A stretch of DNA of 64,000 nucleotides. It comes from Prevotella sp. Lineage in GTDB: Bacteria > Bacteroidota > Bacteroidia > Bacteroidales > Dysgonomonadaceae. Both the position numbers and the translations under genes were made by a program. The notes under the pieces are model-generated. The model saw only the letters and a program-made list of their open reading frames with translations, made no database searches and was not told the DNA's origin. The stretch's first letter is position 1; the number at the start of each line of letters is the position of its first letter. Of this stretch, positions 10,143 through 36,228 are shown in pieces. The stretch is taken from contig JAITVV010000053.1 of the NCBI GenBank assembly GCA_031285625.1, forward strand, positions 35,180-99,179. Reading direction: 5' to 3'.

Positions 10143-10171
10143 GATTAAAATTATTAAGGTTATTTTTTAGG

Positions 10172-10262
10172 TCTTTGTCATTTTGAACGGAGTGAAAAAT
10201 CTCTTTCCTCTTTGAATATAACTGTTGAGGGTCGAGATGCTTCGTTGCCTCAGCATGACAAA
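10172..10262. repeat. REP-like doublet 4, inside the predicted 5'UTR of the GH3 gene
   Basis: tctttgtcATTTTgaacggagtgaAAAATctc ... gagATGCTtcgttgcctcAGCATgacaaa. Confidence 0.9.
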
Positions 10263-10293
10263 AAAGTATGATACAATTAGTAATTTTTTAATT

Positions 10294-10363
10294 CAAATTT
10301 ATTTTTTCAGCATTAATAAACTCATTAAAAAACACATTAAGACCTCCTTAAAATCCTTATTAA
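10294..10363 (-). promoter_or_regulatory. PUL promoter: -7 box TAAATTTG plus phased TTAA array
   Basis: caaattta at 10294-10301; TTAA at 10313, 10325, 10337, 10348 and 10360. Confidence 0.7.
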
Positions 10364-10365
10364 TA

Positions 10366-12729
10366 CTACATTTTTACATTAATCTCCTGTCCCTGATATA
10401 CAATTTGCTTGTCAGCCTGCGAAATGGTGTTTATATTCTTGCCATCTTTAATAATTGTGACATTGAAAGTGCGGTTTTTCAACATGCCCGGAAATTCTCC
10501 CTGACGCGTTCCGATAGTTAGTGTTCCGGTTTTGTCGTCCCATTTCATTTTTATGGTCGAAAAGATGCCTTTTTCGTAATTGTAGTTATCGTTTTCATCT
10601 TCATATAGTACAAACTCGGCATCAGCGCCGGGGAAAATGAAAAGGTTGAGGTTATCCCATCTCTTTTCCTCGGCATACTGTACTTTCGGACCCCACGGTA
10701 GGATACTTCCTGCTTTGATATATAGTGGAATAATATCAATAGGTGTTGCCTTACTGATTTCTTTTCCACCTTCTGTTTTCTCTCCTGTCCAGAAGTCGTA
10801 CCAGTCGGCACCTTTCGGTAAGTATACTTTATGTGATTTTAGAGTGCTGAAATCTTCAACAGCACTGCCGTTTACACGGTTCACATACATAGAGTCGGTT
10901 ACAGGGGCAACAAGAATAGATTTTCCGAACATAAACTGATTGTTTATATCATGCACTTTGGCATCGCTGGCGAAGTCCATACTTAAAGCGCGCATCATAG
11001 AGCCTGCATTGGCTGTAATGTCGTGACCGATAGAGTACATATACGGCAACAGGCTGTAACGCAGATTGATATATTTCTCTTGTGTATCGTAAGCCCAGTC
11101 ACCTTTTTGCCCGAACTGGAAAATCTCACGTGGGGTACTTGTCCCATGCGAACGCATCATCGGGGTGAATGTAGCGAACTGCATCCAGCGTACATACAAT
11201 TCATGGTAGGCTTTGTCCCTGATGCCTTCAGGATATACATGGTGTGCAAAGAACCCGCCTATATCTGTGTTCCAGTAAGGAATTCCGCAAAGTGAGAAAT
11301 TAAGACCGGCAGAAATCTGGTCACGAAGCACATCCCAGCGTGAAACGATATCACCCGACCATGAGTTTGCCCCATAGCGTTGTTGCCCGGCAAAGGCAGA
11401 ACGGGTAAGGATATACACGCGCTTATCGGAAGTAACCTGGCGTTGATAATCGTACACACTACCTACTGATACAAGAGGGAAAGCATTATATACACTACGA
11501 AGCGGTCCCAGATAAGTTTGTTGATTCAGCTCTTTTTTTCCTCCCGAGTATTCAGGTTCGGTAGCGTCCAGCCACCAGCCATCCATACCTATTGAGAAGA
11601 TATTCTTATTCATATAATCCCAGTAGATTTTGCGTGCTTCCGGATTGAAGGCATCATATACTTTCACACCGTTATTATGCGGAAATGTCTCGAAATCGAG
11701 CAACAGGTTTTTCTTTTTCAGGTCTTTATGAATATTTGTGTTTGGTCCGAAAGACGGCCATACAGATATAGCTATATGTGCATTCATCTTATGCACTTCG
11801 TCTATCATCTTTTTCGGGTTGGGGAATGTAGGATTACCAAATTCCACGGCGTTCCAATGCGTATTGTCGGTACTCCAGTATTGCCAGTCCTGCACAATAC
11901 CATCGAGCGGAATATTTAGTTCGCGGTATTTTTTTACAACATCCAACAGTTCGTCCTGTGATGTATACCGTTCGCGGCTTTGCCAGAATCCGTATGTCCA
12001 TAGCGGATACATAGGAGCCTGTCCTGTAAGTTCACGAATACGGGCGATTGTTCCATCAGCATCTTTTCCGTACATGAAGTAATAGTCGATGCAATTGCCG
12101 GCCGTAGAAGTAAATGACAAACCATCATATGAATCTTTGTAAGTAGTAGGGGAGTAGTTGTCCCAGAAAACAGCATAGCCTTTAACCGAATGGATAATCG
12201 GTATGGCTATTTCCATATTCACCTGACGGAGATGAACCTCCTGTCCGCGCTGGTTCATCTTTCCTTGTTGGTGTTGTCCCAGTCCGTAAACAGCTTCCTG
12301 CTTATCCAAAAGGAATGTTTGCTGTACTTCATACGTTTTACCGCTTTCATAATTCTTAGGAGTAAATACGGAAGAAACACTTTTCTCAGCAATAAAAGGG
12401 CGGGTATCTGTTCCATTGAAAAGCACATCCCCGGTAGTCAGGTTCAGGGTGACAATCAGGTCAGCCGTATTCAGCGTGATTACATTGTTGAACTGTTCAA
12501 TCCTGAAATCCGTATTTTCGGGTTCTTTGATAACGGACAGGCTTTTCTTATCCGGTGCTTCTTCCTGAGGATATTTCAGTACCCTGACAATCTGCGGGCT
12601 GAAAAACTGAATTTCGATACTCGTAGATTTTACATTGGTCTTTACTCCCTGCGGCGTGCGTTGGTAATTTTGTGCAACCAACTGACCGGAAAAAATAAGA
12701 ATGAGAAATGTAATAAATGCTTTTTTCAT
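10366..12729 (-). CDS. GH31 alpha-glycosidase (alpha-xylosidase-like) with DUF5110 C-terminus
   Basis: GWWLDATEPE nucleophile, WSGD acid/base and YWNTDIGGF. Start moved to MKKAF at 12729. Confidence 0.9.
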   Translation of the reverse strand: MKKAFITFLILIFSGQLVAQNYQRTPQGVKTNVKSTSIEIQFFSPQIVRVLKYPQEEAPDKKSLSVIKEPENTDFRIEQFNNVITLNTADLIVTLNLTTGDVLFNGTDTRPFIAEKSVSSVFTPKNYESGKTYEVQQTFLLDKQEAVYGLGQHQQGKMNQRGQEVHLRQVNMEIAIPIIHSVKGYAVFWDNYSPTTYKDSYDGLSFTSTAGNCIDYYFMYGKDADGTIARIRELTGQAPMYPLWTYGFWQSRERYTSQDELLDVVKKYRELNIPLDGIVQDWQYWSTDNTHWNAVEFGNPTFPNPKKMIDEVHKMNAHIAISVWPSFGPNTNIHKDLKKKNLLLDFETFPHNNGVKVYDAFNPEARKIYWDYMNKNIFSIGMDGWWLDATEPEYSGGKKELNQQTYLGPLRSVYNAFPLVSVGSVYDYQRQVTSDKRVYILTRSAFAGQQRYGANSWSGDIVSRWDVLRDQISAGLNFSLCGIPYWNTDIGGFFAHHVYPEGIRDKAYHELYVRWMQFATFTPMMRSHGTSTPREIFQFGQKGDWAYDTQEKYINLRYSLLPYMYSIGHDITANAGSMMRALSMDFASDAKVHDINNQFMFGKSILVAPVTDSMYVNRVNGSAVEDFSTLKSHKVYLPKGADWYDFWTGEKTEGGKEISKATPIDIIPLYIKAGSILPWGPKVQYAEEKRWDNLNLFIFPGADAEFVLYEDENDNYNYEKGIFSTIKMKWDDKTGTLTIGTRQGEFPGMLKNRTFNVTIIKDGKNINTISQADKQIVYQGQEINVKM

Positions 12730-12751
12730 GATTATATTGTTTTGTACTTGT

Positions 12752-12864
12752 CTCTTTGTCATTGACTACACTTTGTTTCGTCGAACATTGTTTCTGAACG
12801 AAGTGAAAAATCTCGTATCTCTTTGAGGGTCGAGATTCTTCGTTACACTCAGAATGACAAAGAG
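12752..12864. repeat. REP-like doublet 5, carrying a 28-bp insert in one arm
   Basis: tgtcatt[gactacactttgtttcgtcgaacattgt]ttctgaacgaagtgaaaaatctc ... gagattcttcgttacactcagaatgacaaagag. Confidence 0.88.
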
Positions 12865-12872
12865 GGTATTTA

Positions 12873-15464
12873 TTAATTACCGACTTGTAACTCGTAACTG
12901 CCCACAGGGCGAAGTAACTTGTAACTACTTTTCAATCGGATATCGGCAGACGAAGAGCCAACCATAAATTCATAGTTGCCGTGAGGCACAATGAATTGTC
13001 CGCTCTCAGTGTCCCAATATCTTAACAGGTCTTTCCTTATTTCGATTTCGATATTTCTGGTCTCTCCCTTTTTGAGGGTATTACGCTGAAAGCCTTTGAG
13101 TTCTTTTATCGGTGTAAACTCTCCGGTATGAGGTAGTTTTACATATACCTGTGAAACTTCATCGCCATTCATTTTACCTGTGTTTTTCAGGTTGAACGAC
13201 ACTTTTACGGTGTTTCCGTTATCACTTATTTTCAGATTGTTATAAGCAAAAGTTGTATAGCTTAATCCATACCCGAAAGGATATAGTGGTTTACCTTTAA
13301 AGTATTGATACGTCCTGCCTTTAGAGATATCGTAATCATCAAATGCAGGCAGTTCATCAAGGCTATTGTAGTAGGTTATCGGCAGCCGTCCTCCGGGATT
13401 GTAGTCTCCAAATAATACTTCGGCTACCGCAGTTCCCCCTTGCTCGCCCGGGTACCAGGCATTCACTATGGCAGGGATATTCTCGTCCATCCAGTTGATA
13501 GCCAAAGAGCTACCTGCAACAAGTACTACAACAATATTAGGATTCACTTTGTATATTTCCTCTATAAATTCCATCTGGTCGACAGGCAGGTGAATGTCAT
13601 ACCTGTCTTGCCCTTCACGTTCTATTGTTTTATTGATACCCAGTACGGCAATCACACGTTCACATTCGCGCACAGCCTTGCCGGCTTCACCATACATATC
13701 GAGGCGTTCTTTTGTATCTATTGCCGGTACTTTCCAATATAATTTAGCAACTGCATTGTCGCGGTTATTGAAATACTCGGCTTTGATGTCATATTCTTTT
13801 CCGGCTTCGAGACGGAGGCTGACCGAGTCGGTCGAAATACTTCTTTCATGCCATTCATCAATCAGTTTTTTATCATCTATGAAAAGGCGGCATCCATCAT
13901 CCGCATTGAAATAAATCGTATAGTCTCCCGATACGGCAGGTTTTAATTTTCCTGTCCAGCGTATAGAAATAGGAAATGGAGGAATAAACGGGTCGGGCGC
14001 CTGATTTGCAGGCTCGAAGTTTATCCATTCTTCGGTGCGTGTTTTAGCGTTACCTGTAAGTTCCATATTGGTAAAGTATTCCGTTTTCAGTCCACCGGGA
14101 AAATGTGTTGCAGATATCATTTCTTTTCCGTCCATAGCTGATTTCCACGGGGCATAGACAATCTTCACCTTATCTCCTACCTTATCTTTTATCCCTTGCA
14201 AAACCGATACCGGAGCGTTGGCAGGTATGCCGCTATAATCTCCAAACTCAGAGTTGCCTGCATTGATACCGACAACAGCTATGGATTTTACTTTTTTAGG
14301 ATTGATAGGCAGGGCATTGTTCTTATTCTTCAACAAGACAATACTCTGGCGGGCAGACTCCAAAGCCAGTTGCTTGTGTGCTTCGGAACCGACCACAGAA
14401 GGAGAGATTTTGTTATAAGGATTTAGGGTTGGGTCGTCAAATAAACCTAAATGCATACGGGCTCTCAATACCCTGTATGCAGCCGTGTCTATATCGGCTT
14501 GCGATACCATATATTGGTTATAAGCGTTCAGCAGCGGTTGCATATATACATCATCGCCACATTCGAGGTCGAGCCCTGCCTTGATAGAAAGCGTGGCGGC
14601 GGCTTCTTTTGTTTTCACATATTTCATAGCCGACACCAAGAGGCTTGGTCCTCCACAGTCGGAAACCACATAGCCGTTAAAGCCCCAGTCGTGTCGCAGG
14701 ACTTTGGTCAGCAGCCACGGATTAGCCGTGCAAGGCACATCGTTGATAGCATTATATGCTGACATAATGGAAGCGGATTTTCCTTCCCTGACACACATTT
14801 CGAATGCAGGGAAATAGTATTCCCGCAGTTGCTTTTCTGAAATCTGCGGATTGCAGACAAAGCGGTTATGCTCCTCGTTATTGGCGGCGAAATGCTTCGG
14901 TGTGGAAACGATTTTCAGGTAGCGAGGGTCATTGCCTTGCAGCCCTTTTACAAAGGCTGTTCCTAATACACCCGATAGGTAAGGGTCTTCTCCGTATGTC
15001 TCGGGTGTGCGTCCCCAACGCGGGTCGCGTGCCATATTAACGGTCGGTGACCAGAAGGTAAGCAGGTCGGTAAAACGCTGTGTTTGCAGCCTACCTTGTT
15101 CCAGTTCGTTCCAACGTCCGCGCGCCTCATCCGAAATAGCTGTGGCTATCCGGTAATGCAGGTCGGGATTCCACATACTGGCAAGTCCTATAGCCTGCGG
15201 AAATACGGTAAAGCGTCCCGGGCGTACTACGCCGTGCAGGGACTCGTTGCCGTGGTAATATTTGGGTATTTGCAGGCGCTCTATACCAGGAGAGGTTGCT
15301 CTTAGTAAACTGATTTTTTCCTCTATGGTTAATTGGGACAATAAGTCCATGATACGGTCGTGCGTAGGCGCACTCTCGTCCAGATAAATGTCTTTCTTTT
15401 GAGCATTTGCTGATGATAAGACAAATAGAAAGCAAATAAGTATGATTCCCTTGTATATTTTCAT
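12873..15464 (-). CDS. GH3 beta-xylosidase/glucosidase with PA14 insert
   Basis: RDPRWGRTPETYGEDP, PKHF and GYVVSDC. Start moved to MKIYKG at 15464. Confidence 0.92.
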   Translation of the reverse strand: MKIYKGIILICFLFVLSSANAQKKDIYLDESAPTHDRIMDLLSQLTIEEKISLLRATSPGIERLQIPKYYHGNESLHGVVRPGRFTVFPQAIGLASMWNPDLHYRIATAISDEARGRWNELEQGRLQTQRFTDLLTFWSPTVNMARDPRWGRTPETYGEDPYLSGVLGTAFVKGLQGNDPRYLKIVSTPKHFAANNEEHNRFVCNPQISEKQLREYYFPAFEMCVREGKSASIMSAYNAINDVPCTANPWLLTKVLRHDWGFNGYVVSDCGGPSLLVSAMKYVKTKEAAATLSIKAGLDLECGDDVYMQPLLNAYNQYMVSQADIDTAAYRVLRARMHLGLFDDPTLNPYNKISPSVVGSEAHKQLALESARQSIVLLKNKNNALPINPKKVKSIAVVGINAGNSEFGDYSGIPANAPVSVLQGIKDKVGDKVKIVYAPWKSAMDGKEMISATHFPGGLKTEYFTNMELTGNAKTRTEEWINFEPANQAPDPFIPPFPISIRWTGKLKPAVSGDYTIYFNADDGCRLFIDDKKLIDEWHERSISTDSVSLRLEAGKEYDIKAEYFNNRDNAVAKLYWKVPAIDTKERLDMYGEAGKAVRECERVIAVLGINKTIEREGQDRYDIHLPVDQMEFIEEIYKVNPNIVVVLVAGSSLAINWMDENIPAIVNAWYPGEQGGTAVAEVLFGDYNPGGRLPITYYNSLDELPAFDDYDISKGRTYQYFKGKPLYPFGYGLSYTTFAYNNLKISDNGNTVKVSFNLKNTGKMNGDEVSQVYVKLPHTGEFTPIKELKGFQRNTLKKGETRNIEIEIRKDLLRYWDTESGQFIVPHGNYEFMVGSSSADIRLKSSYKLLRPVGSYELQVGN
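12883..12926. repeat. Heptamer-repeat element with a central GCCCACAGGGC hairpin, copy A
   Basis: acttgta actcgta act gcccacagggc gaagta acttgta act; a near-identical copy lies at 50009-50052. Confidence 0.8.
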
Positions 15465-15479
15465 TGTTATTGTATTATT

Positions 15480-15562
15480 CTCTTTGTCATTCTGAGTGCA
15501 ACGAAGAATCTCGACCCTCAAAGAGATAAGAGATTCTTCACTTCGTTCAGAATGACAAAGAG
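15480..15562. repeat. REP-like doublet 6
   Basis: ctctttgtcATTCTgagtgcaacgaAGAATctc ... gagATTCTtcacttcgttcAGAATgacaaagag. Confidence 0.92.
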
Positions 15563-15593
15563 GGTTTTATTGTTAACTGATGATTGTTAACTG

Positions 15594-16901
15594 TCACTCT
15601 GTTCCTAAATTTCCGTTTATATAACTACTCTTTGCATTATTGTTGATGCGTACCTTTCCTTTAATAGTGTTTTCGCTGACAATGGCACGGTCTACATTGC
15701 TGCCGATGGATATTTGCGGGCTGTCGTGCATAAAGTCGCATCCACGGACAGATACAGAGCCGCTGTTGACCTGTATGGCGCTCCGGTTTTCTTTGTCCCT
15801 GTCCCACTGAACGAAGATACAGTCAGAGAAACCGACTGTGCCCTGTCCGTTGATTTTGGCTATCTGCTCGCATGGCCCCCAGAAAGCACTGTTTACAAAG
15901 CGTACATTTCCTTTATTAGCATCCGTAACCACTACCATTGTAGGGTCGTCGCCATGCATCGCAACAAATTCGCCGTTGGTAATAAGTATTCCATAAGCAG
16001 CACTCTGATCTACTTTAACAGCAGTGTGGCATGCATCGGCTCCGATGCCTAAGAAGTTCCCGTTGCAGGAGCCGGTGCTACCCTGGCTTGCTCCAAACTT
16101 ATAACCAACATTGTATCCGAAGCAGAATGTGTTGAGTACATAGTGCCAGTCGGTGCGCTCGAAGATAAATGCTTCGCCGTGTTCCCTTTGCCAGTTGTAA
16201 AGGGTAGGCTTCATGCTCCACCATGGGTTCCAGTGTACATTTTCTATTCTGCCTATATCATAAATTGCATCCACATAAATTCCCCTGCGCAATGGCTGTC
16301 CACTGATATTGCGGATGAGCGCGCGTTCGTTATGCGAGGCATCGATTGCGTTGTAAGGGTTCAGCATTTCCACATCGAGCAAAGCCGGGTTTTTTCCTTT
16401 CATAGCTACTCCCCACGGATATGCATCAGGCACTTTGTCTGGGTCTTGCAGTGGCCAGTACATCACTACTCCGCGTAGCGTACTGTTTGTATTGATTGTG
16501 ATAGCCGGAGTAGCATCAATATCTTTTCCTTTGCCTCCTGTAATTAGCAGGGTAGTGCCATCTTCGCCGGGTTTAGGGAGTCCTGCATTGCGGATTCCAT
16601 TGTGTGAAGGAACGGATTCGAAAGCCCCTTTCAGGGTAACAGCCTGGGGTATATTCAGTGAACCAGCGATGAGATATGTACCATTTGGTATATATACCGT
16701 TCCGCCCCTTTTCCCAAAAGAGTCCATTGCTTTCTGGATAGCATTGGTATCATCCGTTTTTCCATCGGCTTTTGCCCCGAAATCAAGAACCGAAACTATG
16801 TCTTTAGATTCGGGATGTGGCTTGATATCTGCATTTCTTTGTTGTGCAGTAAGGCTGGCCATTACAAGAAACAGTAATGGTAAAATGAATAATTTTTTCA
16901 T
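15594..16901 (-). CDS. Right-handed beta-helix protein (Pectate_lyase_3 / GH28-related fold), secreted
   Basis: VSVLDFGAKADGKTDDTNAIQKA...GGTVYIPNGTY; signal peptide. Confidence 0.75.
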   Translation of the reverse strand: MKKLFILPLLFLVMASLTAQQRNADIKPHPESKDIVSVLDFGAKADGKTDDTNAIQKAMDSFGKRGGTVYIPNGTYLIAGSLNIPQAVTLKGAFESVPSHNGIRNAGLPKPGEDGTTLLITGGKGKDIDATPAITINTNSTLRGVVMYWPLQDPDKVPDAYPWGVAMKGKNPALLDVEMLNPYNAIDASHNERALIRNISGQPLRRGIYVDAIYDIGRIENVHWNPWWSMKPTLYNWQREHGEAFIFERTDWHYVLNTFCFGYNVGYKFGASQGSTGSCNGNFLGIGADACHTAVKVDQSAAYGILITNGEFVAMHGDDPTMVVVTDANKGNVRFVNSAFWGPCEQIAKINGQGTVGFSDCIFVQWDRDKENRSAIQVNSGSVSVRGCDFMHDSPQISIGSNVDRAIVSENTIKGKVRINNNAKSSYINGNLGTE

Positions 16902-16912
16902 GATAATATATA

Positions 16913-16990
16913 TTAGCGAATTAGCGAATTAGCAGATTAGCAGATTCATTCTTACATTTCCGAATCTGCTAATTTTCGAATTTGCTAATT
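16913..16990. repeat. 8-mer tandem repeats in inverted arrangement (attagcga/attagcag)
   Basis: attagcga x2 and attagcag x2, followed by aatctgctaatt...atttgctaatt. The GH43 stop codon lies inside it. Confidence 0.65.
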
Positions 16991-18697: not shown

Positions 18698-18699
18698 GA

Positions 18700-20961: not shown

Positions 20962-20999
20962 AATAGGTTAATTTATTAATTTGAATTTATTCACAAATA

Positions 21000-21045
21000 C
21001 AAAGTAAACCTCATTCAATTAATAGTTAGATTAATTCTGTATTAA
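21000..21045 (-). promoter_or_regulatory. PUL promoter: -7-like TTACTTTG plus phased TTAA array
   Basis: caaagtaa at 21000-21007; TTAA at 21019, 21031 and 21042. Confidence 0.6.
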
Positions 21046-21067
21046 TATTCAGAAAAAAGTAGAATAA

Positions 21068-21108
21068 ATTTCACTAATCCGGAGTATACTATTCCGGATT
21101 AGTGAAAT
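21068..21108 (-). terminator. Hairpin terminator after susC-susD-DUF3823
   Basis: atttcactaatccgga / tccggattagtgaaat, a 16-bp stem. Confidence 0.75.
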
Positions 21109-21118
21109 GTTTAATCAG

Positions 21119-21898: not shown

Positions 21899-21918
21899 AT
21901 CTGTTATTTTATTAATTG

Positions 21919-23964: not shown

Positions 23965-23978
23965 AATTATGAATCTCT

Positions 23979-26900
23979 TTAAAATTTAATAGTTGCACCA
24001 ATGTTCCATGTACGGTTTAGAGGATATCGGTAATTACCTGTTACATCATTACTGTTTTTGTCAGTATTACCATCTATCGCACCACCCTGTCCTCCGGGAT
24101 GTTCCGGATCCATGCCGTCCAAACCTGTGAAGGTAAGCAGGTTGTATCCACTCACATACACTCGCACATTTTTCGCTCCTACTTTTGATACTAATTTTTT
24201 AGGAAGGGTATATCCTATTTCCAAAGATTTCAAGCGCAGATAAGAAGCACTCTCGATGCGTGTCGATCCGTCAGGGTCATATTCGGCGCCTGTAGTAACC
24301 GGGAATTTTCCAGGTATCCATTTAGAGTTTGGATCGTACATTTTAGACGGGTCTTCCGGATGCCATCTATCCCAGAATTTAATGTTTGTACCTCCATCAT
24401 CCCATCCAAGAGGCTGGGCGTACGTTTCAGTATATCTGTAATGTATACCGGCTGCTCCCTGGAAACTAGCATTCAGGTCGAAGCCTTTATAGGCCGCACC
24501 AATGTTGAATCCATAGTTGAACAAAGGCATACCGAAAGTAGCCAGTGCCTGCATATCTTTGTCGTTGATTACACCGTCACCGTTCCAGTCTTGGTAATAG
24601 TAATCACCAGGGCGCATGCCACCGCCTCCGCCGAGGCGATACGAGTCGAAATTATAGATTTGGTCGAAGCTTTGGAATTGTCCCAATGTCTTCCGTACAA
24701 ACCAAATATCTTTGTAGCGATTCGTATTATCTCTACGTTTCCAGTTCTCGAAAGAGTTACCTGCCGGGCCTTGATCCAGCTTGTTCCTCCATTCGTTGCG
24801 GGTAGCGAACATATTAGCACTGATATTGTATTCAAAACCACCTATATTATTGCGGTGATATATCGACATATCGTATCCGAAAGTACGGTCTGTGTTCATG
24901 TTTTCCTCAGGCATATCGGCACCTACTGTTTTTGGGAGTGCCTCCGTTGATCTGCCTATAAGCCCGTCCCTGTTTCGTACATAGTATTCGAAGCTACCGC
25001 CCAACAGGCCGTTCCACATTTCTGCTTCGATACCTACATTGAGCATTTTGGCTGTATACCATGTGAGGTCGGGATTAGGTAATGAAGTCGGCTTCAATCC
25101 AGATTCCACGCCTCCGTTAGCACCATATATCCAGGCTATTTCCTGAGCTATTTGATACGCTGCACTCACTGTCGGATAATTGGATGCGGCACCGTCATCT
25201 CCCATCACACCATACGAACCTTTCAATTTGAGGTTGTTGATAAACGACAGAGGCGATTCTTTGAAGAACGTTTCTTCGCTGATGCGCCAGCCTGCCGAAA
25301 CCGAACCGAACATCCCCCATTGGGATTCTTTCGGGAACTTGGATGAACCATCATAACGCCCGGCAACTTCCAACAAGTATTTACCTGCATAGTCGTAGTT
25401 GAATTTACCTACAAAAGCCTGGCTCGATCTGTCCCAAGGAGAGCCTGAGTTCATAGAGCCTATTTGGCCGAGCGCGTCGCCGGCAAACAAGTATTCGGAA
25501 TTCAACGACAAATATCTTTTCGCATAAAAGTTATCACCTGTGCTGTATCCGTCTTCGAAGAGTATCAAGGCAGCCACATTGTGCACGTTGTTGAATGTAC
25601 GGTTGTAGTTCAATGAGAGCTGTAAGTTACGGTTTTCCCATTTCTCGTCCATTCGCTGGACTGATCGTTTCGATGGCGTACCACCGTCTCCCATTATAGC
25701 TCCTCCTGATTTATAGGTATCAGTGGCTTCATCATAATTATAGAGGCTATATCCTCTTTTTAGCCACCTGGAATCTTTGTCGCGGAAATCGTAATAGTAC
25801 GAAGCCTTAGCTGATAATCCTTTGATGCCGGGAATGTCGTAAGTGAGAGACAACTGTCCGTTAAATTTACGGTTGATGTACTTATTTTCTCCTACATACT
25901 TGGAATCAGTGTTAGCCAAAGGATGTCCGTCTATCAAACGATTATATTTCTCACCGGGAGAGGCGTTCAGATAGTTCGGGTTATTATTGGCATACACGGG
26001 AACATGAGGTTGTTGTACAAATACATTCTTATAAACGGTCCAAATATCTATACCAGGTTCTACCATATCATCCATGTATCCACCCAAAGAGACTGAAGCC
26101 TTGAGACGCTTGGTGATATTTACATCGACATTGGAACGGAAATTCCAACGGTCGTAGTTCATGGAATTGCTCCTGAGGGCAGATTCCTGATCCATATAAC
26201 CCAAGCTGAAGAAATAACGAACCGTTTCGGAAGCGCCATTCATGGTGATATTATGTTGCTGCTGCATAGCATTATTCCTAAAGGTTGCTCCCAGCCAATC
26301 GGTTGTTTTGCGTGTACCATCCCGGTAGGGTTGGTAGTCTGCATCCGTAAACTGAGGCACTGTGTTACCTGTCAGTGTATTGAACCAGTTTCCGGCATAT
26401 ATTTTTTCATTTACTAGATCCATATATTGTGTCGCATTTACATTATCGGGTACATACAAAAATTGCTGCCAACCGAAGTTCACTCCATATTCAATCTCAA
26501 AAGCTTTACCTCCGGTTGCCCCTCTTTTAGTGGTTACCAGTACAACACCGTTAGCCGAACGCAACCCGTAAATAGCGGCAGAGGCATCTTTCAGTATGGA
26601 AACACTTTCGATTTCGGAAGCATCCATGCGTTGGAAGGTATCGTTGTCAGAAGGAACACCATCGATGATAATCAGCGGAGAGCCTAATCCGCGAATATCG
26701 AATTTGGACTCGAATGCTCCCGGACGGCTACTGGTCTGTGTTACACGTAATCCTGGCAGTTTACCGGCAAGCATGTTCACTACGTTTTCGTTCTTTGTTA
26801 CTGTAATTTCCTTGCTTGCTACACTTGATACCGAACCCGTTAGAGTAGCTCTCTTCTGTGTGCCGTATCCTACTACAACTACATCATCCAATTCGGTTAA

Positions 26901-27239
26901 GTTCTCTTGCAATGTAATTGTAAAATCGGTGTTGTTATCCACCGGAACTTCTTTTTTGATATATCCGATAAATGAAACTATCAGCTTATTGTTAGCAGAA
27001 GCTTCAATGTTGAATTTACCGTCAATATCAGTCAGGGTTCCCCGCTGAGTGCCACTGATAGTGATCGATGCCCCGGGTATAGGTTCTCCCTGAGTGTCTG
27101 TAACTGTACCTCTGACTGTCTTTGTCTGCGAGAATGCGATAAGAGGCATCATCAGGCAAAGTAAAAGAAGTCCGGTGTACCGCCATATAATATGGCTACG
27201 CTCTTTTTTTCTTTTAATTTCTTGGTTGTGATTTTCCAT
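23979..27239 (-). CDS. susC: SusC/RagA TonB-dependent outer-membrane transporter
   Basis: VVVVGYGTQK, ILKDASAAIYG...ANGVVLVTTKRG and a C-terminal Phe. Confidence 0.96.
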   Translation of the reverse strand: MENHNQEIKRKKERSHIIWRYTGLLLLCLMMPLIAFSQTKTVRGTVTDTQGEPIPGASITISGTQRGTLTDIDGKFNIEASANNKLIVSFIGYIKKEVPVDNNTDFTITLQENLTELDDVVVVGYGTQKRATLTGSVSSVASKEITVTKNENVVNMLAGKLPGLRVTQTSSRPGAFESKFDIRGLGSPLIIIDGVPSDNDTFQRMDASEIESVSILKDASAAIYGLRSANGVVLVTTKRGATGGKAFEIEYGVNFGWQQFLYVPDNVNATQYMDLVNEKIYAGNWFNTLTGNTVPQFTDADYQPYRDGTRKTTDWLGATFRNNAMQQQHNITMNGASETVRYFFSLGYMDQESALRSNSMNYDRWNFRSNVDVNITKRLKASVSLGGYMDDMVEPGIDIWTVYKNVFVQQPHVPVYANNNPNYLNASPGEKYNRLIDGHPLANTDSKYVGENKYINRKFNGQLSLTYDIPGIKGLSAKASYYYDFRDKDSRWLKRGYSLYNYDEATDTYKSGGAIMGDGGTPSKRSVQRMDEKWENRNLQLSLNYNRTFNNVHNVAALILFEDGYSTGDNFYAKRYLSLNSEYLFAGDALGQIGSMNSGSPWDRSSQAFVGKFNYDYAGKYLLEVAGRYDGSSKFPKESQWGMFGSVSAGWRISEETFFKESPLSFINNLKLKGSYGVMGDDGAASNYPTVSAAYQIAQEIAWIYGANGGVESGLKPTSLPNPDLTWYTAKMLNVGIEAEMWNGLLGGSFEYYVRNRDGLIGRSTEALPKTVGADMPEENMNTDRTFGYDMSIYHRNNIGGFEYNISANMFATRNEWRNKLDQGPAGNSFENWKRRDNTNRYKDIWFVRKTLGQFQSFDQIYNFDSYRLGGGGGMRPGDYYYQDWNGDGVINDKDMQALATFGMPLFNYGFNIGAAYKGFDLNASFQGAAGIHYRYTETYAQPLGWDDGGTNIKFWDRWHPEDPSKMYDPNSKWIPGKFPVTTGAEYDPDGSTRIESASYLRLKSLEIGYTLPKKLVSKVGAKNVRVYVSGYNLLTFTGLDGMDPEHPGGQGGAIDGNTDKNSNDVTGNYRYPLNRTWNIGATIKF

Positions 27240-27450
27240 AATATACTTCTTAAATAAAGTAATTAATAATAAAATTTAAGTTTTGTGTGAATTGTCTTAC
27301 CTGAATGTTTTATAGTATTAATATTTCCAAATTCTATTCACACATCTCAATAGCATCTTATTCCTGTGAGTCAGGAAGAGTTAATAGGGTTCGTTTTCAT
27401 GATTGATTATTGGTTAAATGGTAAATGTTTTTAGGTGTGTGTATTTTTAG

Positions 27451-27544
27451 CTAATGTATATAACATATATTAATAATTTTGTAAAAAAATCATTAATAGG
27501 TTCATTAAAATTTCTATAATATTGTCTTTTAAATCATTTATTAA
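27451..27544 (-). promoter_or_regulatory. susC promoter: -7-like TACATTAG plus phased TTAA array
   Basis: ctaatgta at 27451-27458; TTAA at 27470, 27493, 27505, 27529 and 27541, with degenerate units at 27481 and 27516. Confidence 0.6.
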
Positions 27545-27604
27545 TGCGGTTTTTGCATTTTGAGAGGAAATAATGCTTTATCTGTATTTGGAATTATCTT
27601 TATT

Positions 27605-27699
27605 CTCTTTGTCATGCTGAGGAACGAAGGATCTTTCTTCATTATTCCATGAATAAGTGGAAGTGGGTCGGGATGCTTCCTTCGTCAGCATGACAAAGA
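27605..27699. repeat. REP-like doublet 7 (spacer type shared with doublet 15)
   Basis: ctctttgtcATGCTgaggaacgaAGGATct ... gggATGCTtccttcgtcAGCATgacaaaga. Confidence 0.88.
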
Positions 27700-27716
27700 C
27701 AGTATAACCTAATATC

Positions 27717-30563
27717 TTAATTAATGAGACTTTTGTATTTAGTCATAAACTGTAAAGATTTGGAGCCCTCCTTAACTTTAAACCTGAATTGTTTCTCTTC
27801 ACCCGGATCAAGCTCATAATGGCGGTCGTCTCCTGTTTTTATCCCGTCAATGAATAATGATAATTTACCTGTATCTGTTATGTTTCCGGTATTGGTAACC
27901 AGTACATTGGCTGCACCATCTTCTACCGTTACCACAGTGATTGCAAAATCGGCAGCAAACTCCATAGGGTAATAGATCTCTCCATTTACTCCGTCTTTGC
28001 TGTTCTCGAAGCCTACGCTGTCTTTTATTTTGTCAGCAGCAATATATGCCGGGCTTTTTCCTCCAACCATAATCTTGAATGTGCCTTTTTCAACTACACG
28101 GTCCATTTGGTCGTTCAGTAACGATAATTGATAAGGAGTCAACATAAACGATACGGTTTTGGATTCTCCCGGATTCAGGTGTACACGGTCAAAGTCTTTC
28201 AGTTCCATTACACGTGTTTTTACGCTGGCATACATATCTGTTACATATAATTGTGCAACTTCGTCTCCGGCTTTTGTACCGGTATTTGTTACTGTAGCTT
28301 GTACAGAAACATTCCCATATTTATCTATAGAAGTTTTCAGGTCTGAGTAGCTGAATGAAGTATAGCTTAATCCATATCCGAAGCGGTATAGAGGATAATA
28401 AGGCATATCTTCGTATTGATAGACACGTCCGGATGTTTTGAAGTTGTAATATAATGGTAGTTGTGCTACATCTCTGGGGAAGGTCATAGGAAGACGTCCG
28501 GCAGGATTATAATCTCCAAAGATGACATCAGCGGTTGCATGCCCTCCTTCCTGGCCCGGTAGCCAGTTTACAAGAATTGCCTTGCAGTTCTTTGATGCAT
28601 AAGTGAGGTTGTAGGGACGTCCGGCTTGGAGAACCAATATCACAGGCTTTCCTGTCTTGCATACGGCTTCTAATAGCTTTTGCTGATCGCCTGGTAATAC
28701 TAATGTAGCATAATCATGGTTTTCACCCGATGTATTGCGGATACCTTTTAAGGCTTCGCTGGTAGAACAATCTCCCAGAACAAGAACTGCTACCTCTGCA
28801 CTCATAGCTGCTTTTACAGCTTTCTCTATTTCCGATCCCTCCGATCCTGTAAAATTACAACCTTTTTCATAAATGACTTTTGTACTGTTTCCTAATGTTG
28901 CTTTTATTCCGGTAAGAACAGATTTCAACTGGTTTGGCTGCGGTTTTGATGTATAATCTCCGGGCTGCAGGTTATCTGCTCCGGGACCTATAACTGCTAT
29001 TGTCTTTATTGTTTTAGATAATGGGAGCATGTTGTCTCTATTTTCTAATAATACGATTGACTCGCGTGCAACCCTAAGAGCTACTTCCTGATGTTCGGGA
29101 GAATTCCATCCCGGATAAATCTTGTTCCAGTCAAGGGCTTTAGATGGGTTATGCTCAAATAGTCCGTTTCTGAACAAGGTGCGTAGCATTGTTTTACATG
29201 TAAAGTTGAGGTCTTCCATATCCAGTTCACCTCTTACGGCTGCAGCTATTACTTCCGGATCGTTGTATGTATCTCCACAGTTTGTAGCTATTCCGGCTGC
29301 TAATGCCTGTCTGGCAGCTTCTATCCTATCCTTTGCAGTATAGTGTTTGCGGCTGGTAAGATTTCCCAGTGCGCCACAGTCGCTGACAATAAATCCATCA
29401 AATCCCCATTCGTCGCGTAAGATACCTTTCAGTAGTTCTTTACTTTTGGCTACCGGCACTCCCATGTAATCAGAATATGCCATCATGATAGACTGGCATT
29501 TGTACTTCTTTATCACATGGCGGAATGGTACAAGGTGTACTTCGCGCATTTCTCTTTCACTCAATCCTATATCATGTGAGTCGCGTCCACCGAGTGGTGC
29601 CCCATGAGCTGCAAAATGCTTGGGAGTTGTCATCAGCCCTCTCGACTGGTATCCTTTTATCCACGCACCACCTATTTCCGATACCAATACAGGGTCTTCA
29701 CCGTATGTTTCTTCGCAGCGGCCCCAGCGTGCGTCCTGTGCTACATCGAGTACCGGAGACCATGCCTGTATAGCATTGGCGCTTTTTGTTTCGTCTGCTA
29801 TTATCTGTGCAGCTTCTTCTATCAGTTTTTTGTTCCATGTAGCTCCCATGCCTATCGATTGCGGGAAGATAGTGGCTCCGCTACCATACGAAAATCCGTG
29901 GATTGCTTCTACTTTCATTACAGCAGGAATCCCCAGGTGCGGTACCCCCGGTATTCCCCATCCTTCGCGCAGTAGCTCCATCTTATCTTCTGTTGTCATT
30001 GCCGAAAGCAAGCTTTCAACACGTAGTTCTAACGGAAGGTCGGGATTCATGTATGGTCTGTTGTTCAGGTCAGAACTTGTTTTTCCTGTTTTAGAATCGG
30101 ATAAGAATACACGAAGTTCTTTTATTGATAGTTTACTAAAAGCCTGTGCTTTGATATTTATTTTTATATGTGCCCCATATTTAGGAGAAAAAGACAATAT
30201 ATATGTATCATCGTTTTCCGGTTTAACGGAGTACTGAACAACATTACCCGGGTTCATAGGATCATAAGTGATAAATATATCCAATGCATTCTGAAGACTT
30301 TGTAACGAAGCTCCGTCTGCTTGTAGTATTATTCTTTCCACATCGCCCGACTGCTGTAGGGTAAGAGTCAGCGTTTGCCCTTTTTTCAGGTCATTTGCTG
30401 ACAGGCTCCAGCCCGTTTTAGCGTCTTTGTCAAATATGTTTTTTGCAGATGCCTGATTAACTGAGGTTACTGCAGAAGCAATGTTTGTTTCCTGAGCTAT
30501 ACACAGATAACTAAAGAAAAAACAAAATATTAAAAAAATGCCTGTTCTTATTGATTTTTTCAT
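27717..30563 (-). CDS. GH3 beta-glycosidase with extra N- and C-terminal domains
   Basis: DARWGRCEETYGEDP, PKHF and GFIVSDC; about 150 aa of extra sequence precede the GH3 core. Confidence 0.9.
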   Translation of the reverse strand: MKKSIRTGIFLIFCFFFSYLCIAQETNIASAVTSVNQASAKNIFDKDAKTGWSLSANDLKKGQTLTLTLQQSGDVERIILQADGASLQSLQNALDIFITYDPMNPGNVVQYSVKPENDDTYILSFSPKYGAHIKINIKAQAFSKLSIKELRVFLSDSKTGKTSSDLNNRPYMNPDLPLELRVESLLSAMTTEDKMELLREGWGIPGVPHLGIPAVMKVEAIHGFSYGSGATIFPQSIGMGATWNKKLIEEAAQIIADETKSANAIQAWSPVLDVAQDARWGRCEETYGEDPVLVSEIGGAWIKGYQSRGLMTTPKHFAAHGAPLGGRDSHDIGLSEREMREVHLVPFRHVIKKYKCQSIMMAYSDYMGVPVAKSKELLKGILRDEWGFDGFIVSDCGALGNLTSRKHYTAKDRIEAARQALAAGIATNCGDTYNDPEVIAAAVRGELDMEDLNFTCKTMLRTLFRNGLFEHNPSKALDWNKIYPGWNSPEHQEVALRVARESIVLLENRDNMLPLSKTIKTIAVIGPGADNLQPGDYTSKPQPNQLKSVLTGIKATLGNSTKVIYEKGCNFTGSEGSEIEKAVKAAMSAEVAVLVLGDCSTSEALKGIRNTSGENHDYATLVLPGDQQKLLEAVCKTGKPVILVLQAGRPYNLTYASKNCKAILVNWLPGQEGGHATADVIFGDYNPAGRLPMTFPRDVAQLPLYYNFKTSGRVYQYEDMPYYPLYRFGYGLSYTSFSYSDLKTSIDKYGNVSVQATVTNTGTKAGDEVAQLYVTDMYASVKTRVMELKDFDRVHLNPGESKTVSFMLTPYQLSLLNDQMDRVVEKGTFKIMVGGKSPAYIAADKIKDSVGFENSKDGVNGEIYYPMEFAADFAITVVTVEDGAANVLVTNTGNITDTGKLSLFIDGIKTGDDRHYELDPGEEKQFRFKVKEGSKSLQFMTKYKSLIN

Positions 30564-30643
30564 CGGTATTATTGTTATTTGGGTTAAATATTTTTTCAGA
30601 AAATTTCAGGAAATGTGTTTTTCCGTTCGTTAAATTATATTTA

Positions 30644-30725
30644 CAAAATAAAGAGCAGGTTATTAAAAAAACTGGAAATCAGGACTTAATAAGATCATTA
30701 AAATTTGATTAATTTGTAATATTAA
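30644..30725 (-). promoter_or_regulatory. PUL promoter: -7-like TTATTTTG plus phased TTAA array
   Basis: caaaataa at 30644-30651; TTAA at 30663, 30686, 30698, 30709 and 30722. Confidence 0.6.
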
Positions 30726-30864
30726 TGAGGGTTTTCATTAAAAAAAGGAGTTTTAATATAAATCAGATATTATTTTGTTGGATTAAAAAAAGAAATAAAG
30801 TATTTTTACATTCGTTAGCTTATTTCGTATTGTGAAAATTATTTGGCTTACTACATAAATTCAG

Positions 30865-33432
30865 ATGAGAAAACTTCAGCTTACTGTATTATTCGTATTT
30901 GTTTCCGTATTGCTAAATACTGTACATGCCGATGATATAGACTATGGCTTGTTTATTAAGGCATTTCCTTTTAGCGACCATGAAAAGACATCTCTTGTTT
31001 TGGAGAATAACCAGCCTGTAAAACTGGGGAAAGAGACGGCTATGTCATTTGAGATGAATGTGCGTAAAGACAATGTCTTCGGAATTGTATTCCGGATGAT
31101 AACTAACAAGAAAGACAATATAGACCTGTTGTTTACCGTAGGAGAGAATGACAAACGTTATCCTATGCTTGTGGTAAACGAATCGGTGTTTATGATTACG
31201 CAGGAAATAAGTTGTAATCAGTGGGTTCCTGTGAGTATAACGTTTTCCTCTGCAAAAAATGAAATCACATTAAATTACGGGGAGTCAAAACTATCGGTTC
31301 CGTATCCTGTGTCACAGGTTAATAACGCAATGATTTCATTTGGGCTTTGTCCCTTCGAAGGGTATACCCTTTATGATATTGCCTCCGTTAATATAAGGAA
31401 TATAAAGCTAACAGAAGGAGGGAATACAACCCGTCTTTGGACACTGGAAAAACATGAAGGGAACAATAGTTTCGATTCGGTGTCGCAAGTACCTGCTATT
31501 GCTGCCAATCCATTATGGATAACTGATATTTATGCATCATGGGAAAAGATATATTCCAAACCTGTAAAAGAGAATGCATTATTTGCCTTTAATCCCGAAC
31601 AGAGTACTATATATATTGCGTCACCCGATTCTAAAGAAGTTATTGCATTTGATGCCGTACAGAAAAAGGAAAACCTGCTTCAGGTGAGAGATGGTATTAT
31701 AGCTGCAAATGCACCTAATCAACTGTTCTATGATCCACGTCGCAACCAGTTGGTATCTTATAATCTGGATGAAAATATTATCTCCCGTTTTTCATTTACC
31801 AGCAGCACGTGGGATAGCCATATAAAGCCTTTACTGGAACATGGGTATTGGAACAATTCAGTTTCTTATTCACCTTCCGATTCCACACTTATCTCTTTTG
31901 GTGGATATGGCTTTTATAAATACAATAATGACCTGATTCGCTTAGATATAGACAGGAAATCTATAAAGAAATCGAATCTTCCGGAAATCCCCCCCCGCTA
32001 TTCTACATCAACAGTTATCGTAAATAAGGTATTATATGTATTCGGCGGAAGAGGTAACAAGTCGGGTAGGCAGGAGTTATCACCGCGCAACTTCTATGAC
32101 TTTTATTCAGTAAATCTGCTTACCGAGCAAACAAATAAGCTATGGGAACTGGATAGTATAGACAGTGATTTTCTTCCAAGCGAAAATATGGTTTTTGACG
32201 AGAAAGAAAATTGTTTCTATGTTTTTACGTCTAAAGATGGCGGGACACTGCTAAGGATAAGAAAAGACAACAGTGGGTATGAGCAGGCATCTTATCCTAT
32301 ATATGAAGATCTGACCTCACATTATTTATATACTAACCTGTATTATTCTCCCGGTCAAAAGAAATTCTATGCGTTGGTAAACAAGATCAAGACAGATAAG
32401 TCGGCAGAGGTTTCCATATATTCGCTCAATTATCCTCCTGTAACAATAAAGATGGTAGACCCTGCCCTTGTACAGGCAGAAGATACCCAATCTTTATCGA
32501 AGTGGATAATGATAATAGGTATTATAACCGGACTTATCATTGCAGCATTGGTTTTATACTATCTGGTGAAGAAGCAGATGTCGCATAGGCGTACAGACCG
32601 TGTGGCAAATAATGTTTCAGATTATGTAGCTATTGCCGCCAATAAAGTAGAAAAAAGTAAAGAACCGGAGCAGCTTTATTATGATTTTTCTAAAAAATCC
32701 GTTTGCTTCCTCGGAGGCTTTAATGTGATGGATAAGAACGGGCAGAATATTACAGGGCAGTTTACCCCTATGCTCAAATACCTGCTTGTACTATTAATAT
32801 TGTCTACAGAGAAAGACGAAAAAGGTATATCCGGCAAAAAGCTGATCCAGTTATTATGGTACGATAAGAACGAAGAATCTGCAAAGAATAACCGCAATGT
32901 GTACCTGAGCAAACTACGTTCGGTTCTCGAGAATGTGGGTAATGCTGAGATAATCAACCAGAGTGGTTTCTGGACAATAAAGTTTAACGATATAGCTTGT
33001 GACTATGTTGAAGCAATGCGCTTATTCTCGGCAATAAAAGATAATAATGATTCAGAACAATCTGATATAGATCATCTACTTGAGCTGCTGTTGCGTGGCG
33101 TATTGTTACCAAACACAGAAGCCGACTGGGTAGACGGGTTTAAAAGTGATTTTTCGAATATGACGATAGATATACTCACCGAGCTGTCTCAGAGTAATTA
33201 CAATAAATTGACTGACGACCTTAAACTGAAAATTGCCGACACACTATTTTTGCACGATTTTATAAATGAGGAAGCATTATACCTGAAATGTTCTATTTTC
33301 TTTAACTCGGGGAAGAAAGGTATTGCAAAAACTATTTATGATAATTTCAGCAAAGAGTACTTCAATCTGCTGGGTACAAAGTATAAATATTCACTGACGG
33401 ATGTAGTAGAGAGGAAGAATTTAGAGCAATAG
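30865..33432 (+). CDS. Membrane-anchored PUL regulator: periplasmic Kelch sensor, TM helix, cytoplasmic SARP/OmpR-like winged helix
   Basis: Signal peptide, Kelch motifs FGGYG and YVFGGRG, hydrophobic WIMIIGIITGLIIAALVLYYLV, then FLGGF...LLW...NNRNVYLSKLR. Confidence 0.8.
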   Translation: MRKLQLTVLFVFVSVLLNTVHADDIDYGLFIKAFPFSDHEKTSLVLENNQPVKLGKETAMSFEMNVRKDNVFGIVFRMITNKKDNIDLLFTVGENDKRYPMLVVNESVFMITQEISCNQWVPVSITFSSAKNEITLNYGESKLSVPYPVSQVNNAMISFGLCPFEGYTLYDIASVNIRNIKLTEGGNTTRLWTLEKHEGNNSFDSVSQVPAIAANPLWITDIYASWEKIYSKPVKENALFAFNPEQSTIYIASPDSKEVIAFDAVQKKENLLQVRDGIIAANAPNQLFYDPRRNQLVSYNLDENIISRFSFTSSTWDSHIKPLLEHGYWNNSVSYSPSDSTLISFGGYGFYKYNNDLIRLDIDRKSIKKSNLPEIPPRYSTSTVIVNKVLYVFGGRGNKSGRQELSPRNFYDFYSVNLLTEQTNKLWELDSIDSDFLPSENMVFDEKENCFYVFTSKDGGTLLRIRKDNSGYEQASYPIYEDLTSHYLYTNLYYSPGQKKFYALVNKIKTDKSAEVSIYSLNYPPVTIKMVDPALVQAEDTQSLSKWIMIIGIITGLIIAALVLYYLVKKQMSHRRTDRVANNVSDYVAIAANKVEKSKEPEQLYYDFSKKSVCFLGGFNVMDKNGQNITGQFTPMLKYLLVLLILSTEKDEKGISGKKLIQLLWYDKNEESAKNNRNVYLSKLRSVLENVGNAEIINQSGFWTIKFNDIACDYVEAMRLFSAIKDNNDSEQSDIDHLLELLLRGVLLPNTEADWVDGFKSDFSNMTIDILTELSQSNYNKLTDDLKLKIADTLFLHDFINEEALYLKCSIFFNSGKKGIAKTIYDNFSKEYFNLLGTKYKYSLTDVVERKNLEQ

Positions 33433-33460
33433 TGAATATAAAATATAATCTTTTTTCATT

Positions 33461-33518
33461 TTAATAGTATATTAAGTGGTGTGTTAATAGTCTTATTAAT
33501 ATACATCACTTTTCTTTG
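33461..33518 (+). promoter_or_regulatory. PUL promoter: phased TTAA array plus -7-like TTTCTTTG
   Basis: TTAA at 33461, 33472, 33484 and 33496; tttctttg at 33511-33518. Confidence 0.6.
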
Positions 33519-33549
33519 TGTAAAATGAAAAACGTTATCTGTTAATACC

Positions 33550-35991: not shown

Positions 35992-36111
35992 TTAATTCTC
36001 TTATTTATAAATCTGAAATGGTATTGCTCATGGCGGGCAGTACAGGGGATTGTTTGCTCTTTTTACATACGCTTCGCTCCTGTAACCATTGGTTGCAATG
36101 TAGTTAATACT

Positions 36112-36206: not shown

Positions 36207-36228
36207 GAAAAAATAACGAGGTATTACT

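Follow-up and report, generated by a model that had tools for sequence, protein, structure and literature searches.

Five promoters of a polysaccharide utilization locus (PUL) carry arrays of TTAA-centred repeats that are probably the operators of a regulator encoded in the same locus. The locus lies in a 64,000-nucleotide stretch of DNA (the window) from a Prevotella sp. genome assembly (GCA_031285625.1, contig JAITVV010000053.1, positions 35,180 to 99,179), and the regulator gene occupies window positions 30865-33432 on the plus strand. Judging from the DNA and from predicted structures, the regulator, a protein of 855 amino acids (aa), would be a membrane-tethered SARP activator that acts on TWTTAATR direct repeats and so replaces the contact at the -33 element.

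In Bacteroidota, primary-sigma promoters are marked by a -7 box of consensus TAnnTTTG that lies a few bases before the transcription start. A first-pass annotation of the window had reported a TAnnTTTG-like octamer upstream of five genes, each exactly 11 bp (N11) from the nearest TTAA, with further TTAA units at steps of about 12 bp and some units skipped. All of its octamer and TTAA coordinates were correct, and we found 11 bp between the proximal TTAA and the box at five out of five promoters. The box of GH3a, TAAATTTG (10294-10301, minus strand), has the full TAnnTTTG consensus, and its array (10313-10363, minus strand; TTAA at 10313, 10325, 10337, 10348 and 10360; steps of 12, 12, 11 and 12 bp) starts 2 nt past the GH31 stop codon. 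The box TTACTTTG (21000-21007, minus strand) and an array at 21019-21045 (minus strand; TTAA at 21019, 21031 and 21042; steps of 12 and 11 bp) precede the run that leads from GH92 through GH43, a pectate-lyase-like gene and GH3b to GH31 (10366-20961). Ahead of susC-susD-DUF3823 (21119-27239) are the box TACATTAG (27451-27458, minus strand) and an array at 27470-27544 (minus strand; TTAA at 27470, 27493, 27505, 27529 and 27541; steps of 23, 12, 24 and 12 bp), in which two units are skipped or degenerate. The GH3c box, TTATTTTG (30644-30651, minus strand), is served by an array in a divergent intergenic region (30663-30756, minus strand; TTAA at 30663, 30686, 30698, 30709, 30722, 30738 and 30753; steps of 23, 12, 11, 13, 16 and 15 bp); the step rule stated earlier was right here too, except that the phase slips to 16 and 15 bp at the far end. 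On the plus strand, the GH95 array (33461-33499; TTAA at 33461, 33472, 33484 and 33496; steps of 11, 12 and 12 bp) begins 29 bp past the regulator stop codon, and the box TTTCTTTG (33511-33518) follows its last TTAA by 11 bp, ahead of the GH95 ATG at 33550.

As first described, four of the five boxes depart from TAnnTTTG by one mismatch and one matches in full; these boxes, with zero or one mismatch, lie 25-205 nt upstream of the five start codons. Every array is found upstream of the first gene of a gene run. Aligning the 24 units of the window in the direction of transcription gave the consensus TWTTAATR, a longer unit than the TTAA first noted, with T at position -2 in 19, A or T at -1 in 22, T at +5 in 19 and a purine at +6 in 19 of the 24 units.

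To judge chance, we counted TTAA chains throughout the genome that holds the window (4,843,028 bp in 96 contigs, 37% GC, 28,940 TTAAs). There were 26 chains of at least three units at steps of 11-13 bp and five of at least four, compared with 15-19 and 0.6-0.85, respectively, after local shuffling of TTAA positions; steps of 17-19 bp also yielded four chains of at least four units genome-wide. The genome-wide total is therefore unremarkable when taken alone. The 28.5-kb PUL, however, holds 5 of the 26 chains of at least three units and 3 of the 5 of at least four (0.15 expected; Poisson P = 6e-7), and a sixth chain of the 26 adjoins a paralogous regulator on contig C30. The other two chains of at least four units lie inside a 780-aa open reading frame (C81) and in an unrelated AT-rich divergent intergenic region (C35:138205, five units). 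Strict chains account for four of the five claimed arrays, the susC array falling outside this definition because units are skipped. The fifth strict chain in the window, at 27250 (three units, steps of 13 and 13 bp), is separate; it abuts the susC start codon and is not one of the claimed arrays.

The first-pass annotation had regarded the fixed spacing as the real evidence, and this was upheld. Outside the three regulator loci of the genome, a TTAA pair ahead of a -7-like box (no more than one mismatch) occurred 11-26 times per offset for offsets of 4-21 bp, with 21 cases at offset 11, so TTAA pairs elsewhere show no preference for 11 bp. By contrast, inside the three regulator loci there were five cases at offset 11 (one of them the unclaimed 27250 chain) and zero to two at any other offset. 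The 21 sites outside the regulator loci, from a search of the whole genome for further regulon members, are at background level. Equal phasing at unrelated promoters had been named in advance as a ground for refutation; such phasing was not found there, so this test does not refute the proposal.

The arrays are conserved in related genomes. Homologs of the regulator at E ≤ 1e-20 were present in 27 of the 61 genomes searched (this genome, G000, included), nearly all of the same genus and with up to seven matches per genome, and orthologs 70-76% identical were found in eight genomes of the genus, in largely syntenic PULs. At the GH3a promoter, all eight sequences (the window and the seven relatives with the gene in the fetched piece) have five or six TTAA units, N11 and TA..TTTG; at the GH95 promoter, all nine (the window and eight relatives) have four units, N11 and T[T/A]..TTTG. 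In both alignments, the columns of the TTAA(T) units and of the TTTG in the box stay invariant, and the 7-9-bp spacers vary. Conservation in orthologous PULs, suggested earlier as a check, is thus seen in the units, their phase and N11, and the differing spacers mean that the orthologous alignments are not identical by recent transfer. In four relatives, the GH95 array lies about 260 bp or more from the regulator stop codon, with other sequence between, and it still abuts the GH95 box. At the GH92 promoter, read by eye, two or three units are kept in five out of seven relatives; the array is weak in L036 and absent in L033, where other sequence precedes the GH92 gene. An array is present in the intergenic region upstream of the regulator at all eight orthologous loci.

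The same layout recurs beside other members of the regulator family. The genome has two paralogs of the regulator, with 32% identity (on C30) and 26% identity (on C47, with one in-frame TAG). The C30 paralog is followed by three TTAA units at 12-bp steps, N11 and CATTTTTG, ahead of its susC; no clear TTAA phasing was seen ahead of the susC of the C47 paralog. Relatives contributed 21 non-orthologous regulator loci (111 kb in all); 13 strict chains were found at 11 of them, compared with 0.46-0.60 expected at the rate of this genome (P ~1e-13). In all 32 loci together, TAnnTTTG (one mismatch allowed) lay 11 bp past the last TTAA of a chain in 18 cases and 12 bp past it in two, with zero to four cases at each other offset from 0 to 30. 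Nine of the 18 represent the one orthologous GH95 promoter; the other nine come from the paralog groups L002, L015, L016, L017, L018, L019, L021, L022 and L025, several of them with a perfect box.

A phylum-wide profile search detected the C-terminal domain of the regulator in 11 of 401 genomes (G000 counted). Five distant homologs have arrays behind their stop codons, with units of TTAAG, TAACCC or GTAACC, a period of 11-12 bp and N11. The array-N11-box layout beside paralogous and distant members thus ties the arrays to the regulator family and not to AT-richness. With units read by eye, their flanks appeared to correspond to the motif of the predicted recognition helix: NNRNV occurs with TTAAT, NNRGV with TTAAC or TTAAG, and NSRGV with GGGTTA.

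We then examined the regulator itself. It begins with a putative signal peptide (residues 1-22), and the predicted structure shows a periplasmic beta-sandwich (residues about 29-192) and a six-bladed Kelch propeller (about 201-522). The only hydrophobic helix of transmembrane (TM) type lies at residues 547-568 (nt 32503-32568) and is followed by KKQMSHRR. Beyond it are a predicted cytoplasmic winged helix (residues about 612-707, nt 32698-32985) and a predicted BTAD helical bundle (about 713-848, nt 33001-33408). We placed this C-terminal SARP module in the cytoplasm because of the signal peptide, the single TM helix and the basic stretch that follows it.

Fold models were built on alignments of 29 and 22 family members from this and related genomes. 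The model of the C-terminal 288 aa (predicted local distance difference test [pLDDT] 88, predicted TM-score 0.82) has a winged helix, with strands, three helices and a beta-hairpin wing, followed by the helical bundle. Of the 500 Foldseek matches listed for it, six had E ≤ 1e-3, and all six are SARPs: AfsR transcription complexes (8hvr_I with E 2e-8, 8k60_J and 8k60_I) and EmbR (2fez, 2ff4_A and 2ff4_B). These alignments span 248-261 columns with TM-scores of 0.53-0.60 and E values of 2e-8 to 1e-5; the next match has E 0.06. The periplasmic model (pLDDT 90) is all-beta, a sandwich followed by a propeller, and its best matches are Kelch propellers (LZTR1, KLHDC and plant specifier proteins) and lectin-plus-propeller sialidases. 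Pfam gave weak Kelch matches (E 1e-9 to 2e-4, mostly below the cut-off), and no NCBIfam model was above its cut-off for the whole regulator at E up to 1. The source annotations of some homologs read "SARP family". At the level of predicted structure, the first-pass label of a Kelch-SARP protein is right. A two-copy dimer prediction of the SARP module (residues 40-288 of A1, the alignment of the regulator C-terminal part) scored 0.00, a result that speaks neither for nor against binding.

These results suggest the following course of regulation. The regulator would be a single-pass type-I membrane protein. An oligosaccharide set free from the PUL substrate is probably what its periplasmic part, the lectin-like beta-sandwich and the Kelch propeller, senses. 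The glycan signal would pass through the one TM helix to the cytoplasmic SARP module, in which the OmpR-type winged helix and the BTAD domain would bind head-to-tail on three to seven direct repeats with a period of about 12 bp. We infer that the regulator binds the arrays, that it does so cooperatively and that it activates rather than represses, with transcription starting just downstream of the -7-like boxes. Counting TTAA and the following 11 bp (equivalent to a heptamer plus 8 bp), the proximal unit starts 15 bp before the -7 box, where the -33 element would be. Because of this position, the bound protein would stand in for sigma region 4 or re-dock it, recruiting RNA polymerase as AfsR does. 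The five promoters activated in this way would be ones that have no evident -33 element and, in four cases, an imperfect box. Five units would be switched on: GH3a; GH92 to GH31; susC-susD-DUF3823; GH3c; and GH95. The first-pass annotation had spoken of five co-induced units, and they would be co-induced under this mechanism.

Several observations weigh against reading the arrays as operators of this regulator. The unit core, TATTAATA, is palindromic, and directionality within the window is modest, with G at +6 in 8 of 24 units and C at -2 in 2 of 24. With a period of about 12 bp instead of the 11 bp of SARP boxes, neighbouring units would not lie on one face of B-DNA. The array of susC is kept in two out of eight relatives (L046 and L048) and that of GH3c in one out of three relatives that have the ortholog (one out of eight overall). 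These two arrays are seldom kept because the loci are rearranged in the relatives. At susC, five have a different SusC/D pair (46-49% identity) with coding sequence ahead of it, and L037 has no array within 520 nt. Strict TTAA chains are absent from 10 of the 21 paralog loci, and one subgroup, apparently that of the C47 paralog, uses GGGTTA-like units for which the spacing to the box could not be established. The TTAA core is common to many paralogs, which leaves the flanks, read by eye, as the necessary source of specificity. The relatives are not independent samples, and the P values therefore overstate significance. The SARP assignment rests on predicted structure because the sequence models stay under their cut-offs: Trans_reg_C matched the C-terminal part with E 0.06 and 13.9 bits (cut-off 26.2), Pfam scans of the C- and N-terminal parts to E 10 gave no BTAD match, and a profile search of PDB sequences returned no SARP, only chance saposin matches. 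Finally, five public runs contain the stretch, two of them recorded as RNA, and four were compared over 20500-36500; all are assembled contigs from a strain about 90-99% similar, from which starts, ends and strand are not readable, and the missing cover of run X2 over GH95 is not interpretable.

The arrays could also be operators of the same regulator that act in repression, or in a dual role, with the protein occupying -24 to -75 and blocking polymerase until a ligand releases it. We consider this improbable. The arrays overlap with the site of the -33 element and continue upstream of it, which is compatible with occlusion, and the GH3a box, with its full consensus, might fire unaided; the other four boxes, however, are imperfect, and the characterised SARPs (PMC10936776) are activators that bind at exactly this position relative to the -10 element. 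The strict 11-bp register across distant paralogs likewise fits a protein that contacts polymerase, whereas a repressor needs no such register. Just as improbable, in our judgement, is that the arrays are read by another factor, such as a global or nucleoid-type AT-hook-like protein, or are intrinsically bent DNA, and have been inherited with the regulator as a module. Phased TTAA, being rich in TpA, is flexible, a common factor would simply explain why many paralogs share the TTAA core, and the unrelated AT-rich intergenic region at C35:138205 also has a five-unit chain. Apart from that chain, however, the arrays were not seen at unrelated promoters of the genome, and they do stand at internal promoters, as far as 20 kb away from the gene of the regulator. 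In distant members the unit becomes TAACCC or GTAACC while the period and N11 stay, and the unit flanks track the regulator subgroups; intrinsic bending would be expected to have a period of 10-11 bp, not 12.

That the arrays are functionless clusters of TTAA in AT-rich intergenic DNA is very unlikely. The number of chains of at least three units (26) is near that after shuffling (15-19), and the 17-19-bp steps give four chains of at least four units, both of which speak for chance. Against this, the chains are concentrated in one locus at P = 6e-7, the TTAA columns are conserved against varying spacers in eight or nine sequences, and the layout recurs beside paralogs and distant homologs. We regard activation by the membrane-tethered SARP regulator as the probable reading.

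Gene families in the PUL were assigned by Pfam. On the minus strand, it comprises GH3a (7470-10142), GH31 (10366-12762), GH3b (12873-15521), a pectate-lyase-like protein (15594-16901), GH43 with an F5/8 domain (16985-18697), GH92 (18700-20961), DUF3823 (21119-21925), SusD (21919-23964), SusC (23979-27239) and GH3c (27717-30563). The regulator gene, assigned by Pfam and predicted folds, and GH95 (33550-35991) are on the plus strand, where GH99-like, DUF5703/GH95-like and ceramidase-like proteins are encoded alongside them. Judged by this gene content (GH31, GH95, GH3, GH43, GH92 and GH99-like), the substrate may be a hemicellulose with fucosyl or xylosyl decoration, or else a glycan that contains mannose. 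By eye, a hairpin with 15-bp arms followed by a T-rich run (21069-21107, minus strand) lies between the DUF3823 stop codon and the GH92 array, and hairpins of different sequence were seen at the equivalent place in L040, L045 and L047. The hairpin resembles a terminator and would split susC-susD-DUF3823 from the GH92 unit. It was not among the sites listed by a scan for consensus sigma-70-type promoters and terminators, which returned 50 sites compared with 45 in shuffled sequence and is uninformative for Bacteroidota. Rfam at gathering thresholds gave no match over 7000-37000.

Some further features of these promoters were noted. The susC leader from the predicted box to the ATG is about 205 nt (27240-27450) and is long in L046 and L048 too; it has no Rfam match. 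Plus-strand reading of positions 30753-30777, where the GH3c array has its far end, gives TTAA, 13 bp and TTATTTTG, aimed at the regulator gene. Because the unit core is palindromic, the GH3c array might serve both directions, and thus, from its sequence, might also belong to the promoter of the regulator itself (autoregulation). An element of about 95-100 bp that resembles a miniature inverted-repeat transposable element (MITE), with terminal inverted repeats (CTCTTTGTCATGCTGAGG ... ATGACAAAGAG), occurs at 10170-10265, 27560-27660, 36105-36205 and 36225-36320. The copy in the GH3a leader is present in the window and in L033 and absent from the other six orthologous promoters, and was therefore inserted between the GH3a promoter and the start codon. 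At the MITE-like copies, contigs of the public runs break and depth rises. We considered the contig breaks at 27634-27697, 33521 and 36100-36350 as transcript ends and rejected them; they also occur in probable DNA runs and coincide with repeats or with a change in divergence. At 33521, 3 nt past the GH95 box, contigs of runs X1, X2 and X5 end or change, and beyond it the contigs diverge more strongly from the window (115-166 differing letters). This position looks like a strain-level recombination boundary at the promoter.

Searching this genome with the A1 profile returned only three paralogs at E ≤ 0.01. A weak match at E 0.012 (C21:53106-54935) is a TPR protein and was set aside. The C47 paralog (C47:2385-4907, minus strand), which has the in-frame TAG, lies between a susC-like gene and a stretch that by eye resembles a tRNA gene; it may be a pseudogene. 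Single-stop copies of the regulator occur in several relatives too. Two proteins of about 510 aa (L049:5059-6594, minus strand, and L050:7386-8906, plus strand) have the TM helix and the SARP half in common with the regulator, at 34-35% identity, and a different N-terminal part without a Pfam match. Their genes are divergent from an operon that encodes an LRR protein, a DcuC transporter, an amidohydrolase, a porin O/P and an M14 peptidase, and in the promoter that they share, TTAATAGCC-type units follow each other at 23 bp, with TTCA or TTTA units between. The regulator family is therefore not confined to PULs.

PUL regulation is understood for hybrid two-component systems (HTCS), SusR and extracytoplasmic function (ECF)/anti-sigma systems. 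"SARP-OmpR" appears only as a category among the predicted PUL regulators listed in PMC7641319. For the sensor architecture, operator and mechanism of SARP-OmpR PUL regulators, we found no description in the literature searched, whose coverage leaves out most subscription journals. The underlying logic is SARP logic; new are the Kelch sensor with its membrane tether, the PUL regulon, the register relative to the -7 box and the TTAA code of 12 bp. From the sequence one can read the operator, a regulon of five units (about 26 kb) and a spacing rule that applies across the family. With this rule, which sets units about 12 bp apart and N11 before the -7 box, regulons and promoters can be predicted for genomes of Dysgonomonas-like and other Bacteroidales. 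Operator, regulon and rule together open to experiment how a membrane-tethered SARP activates -7/-33 promoters of Bacteroidota, how several paralogs in a genome keep their regulons apart and which glycan the Kelch head senses.

We regard it as evenly balanced whether these regulators form a separate class of PUL master switch. In such a class, a lectin-plus-Kelch head would read a periplasmic glycan, and without a phosphorelay a SARP module would polymerise on three to seven direct repeats, taking over from the Bacteroidota primary sigma factor in recognising the -33 site. Period and 11-bp register would be fixed, and each paralog would owe its private regulon to the flanks of T(T/A)AA and to one or two residues of the recognition helix. 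If true, this would be a case of "sigma adaptation" outside actinobacteria.

The regulator can be compared with several known systems. ToxR, TcpP and CadC bind AT-rich direct repeats at promoters through an OmpR-type winged helix, which a single TM helix connects to a periplasmic sensor, and the regulator resembles them in combining a sensor, one TM helix and a winged helix in one polypeptide. A ToxR-like topology was nevertheless rejected, as the order is reversed: the DNA-binding domain of ToxR and CadC is N-terminal (type II), whereas here it is C-terminal, with a signal-peptide sensor outside. ToxR-like proteins also have no BTAD domain, whereas the regulator has a predicted one. With HTCS the regulator shares a periplasmic beta-propeller sensor and location in a PUL, and the BT4663 and BT4673 sensor domains are among the lower-ranked Foldseek matches of the periplasmic model. 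In the 855-aa protein, however, Pfam detects none of the domains of an HTCS (histidine kinase, receiver, AraC), which sets aside an identity as HTCS; in their absence, signal transfer would be direct, with no phosphorelay.

Like SusR-like regulators, the protein would be a membrane-spanning PUL regulator that senses in the periplasm with its N-terminal part and binds DNA in the cytoplasm with its C-terminal part. This genome encodes six DUF6377 proteins of 536-591 aa with TPR (on C21, C86, C37, C39, C69 and C17), which we take to be its SusR-like family. Kinship with SusR was rejected at profile level, with DUF6377 domains standing in for SusR itself: comparison of A1 with the six DUF6377 domains gave an hhalign probability of 1.3%, and Pfam gave no DUF6377 match in the regulator. 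One DUF6377 protein with a TPR match adjoins a GH123 gene, and another (C69:99766-100485) lies about 6 kb from a GH97 gene. Among 14 control genomes, the DUF6377 family was matched only in Bacteroides thetaiotaomicron. The motifs predicted for SusR-like proteins are direct repeats at two sites 67 or 77 bp apart (PMC3878776), and differ from the 12-bp arrays found here, which abut the -7 box.

The closest likeness is with the SARP activators (AfsR with the afs box, ActII-ORF4, DnrI and EmbR of Mycobacterium): the predicted winged-helix and BTAD module matches AfsR and EmbR, and the arrays partly resemble SARP boxes, as phased direct repeats whose 3' unit stands at a fixed short distance from a -10-type element. 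As described in PMC10936776, SARP targets are direct repeats 11 or 22 bp apart, the 3' repeat being 8 bp from the -10 element; the AfsR box overlaps the -35 element, and AfsR dimers give sigma region 4 a new docking surface, termed "sigma adaptation". Since TTAA plus 11 bp corresponds to a heptamer plus 8 bp, the register here would be that of SARP-dependent promoters. SARP boxes have a period of 11 bp and two or three units, whereas the arrays of the window have mostly 12 bp (11-13, or 23-24 with a skipped unit) and three to seven units. In actinobacterial SARPs the module is N-terminal and the protein soluble; in the regulator described here, the predicted module forms the C-terminal end and follows a periplasmic sensor and a membrane tether. 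Actinobacterial SARPs govern antibiotic synthesis, whereas the present regulator would serve glycan catabolism at -7/-33-type promoters of Bacteroidota.

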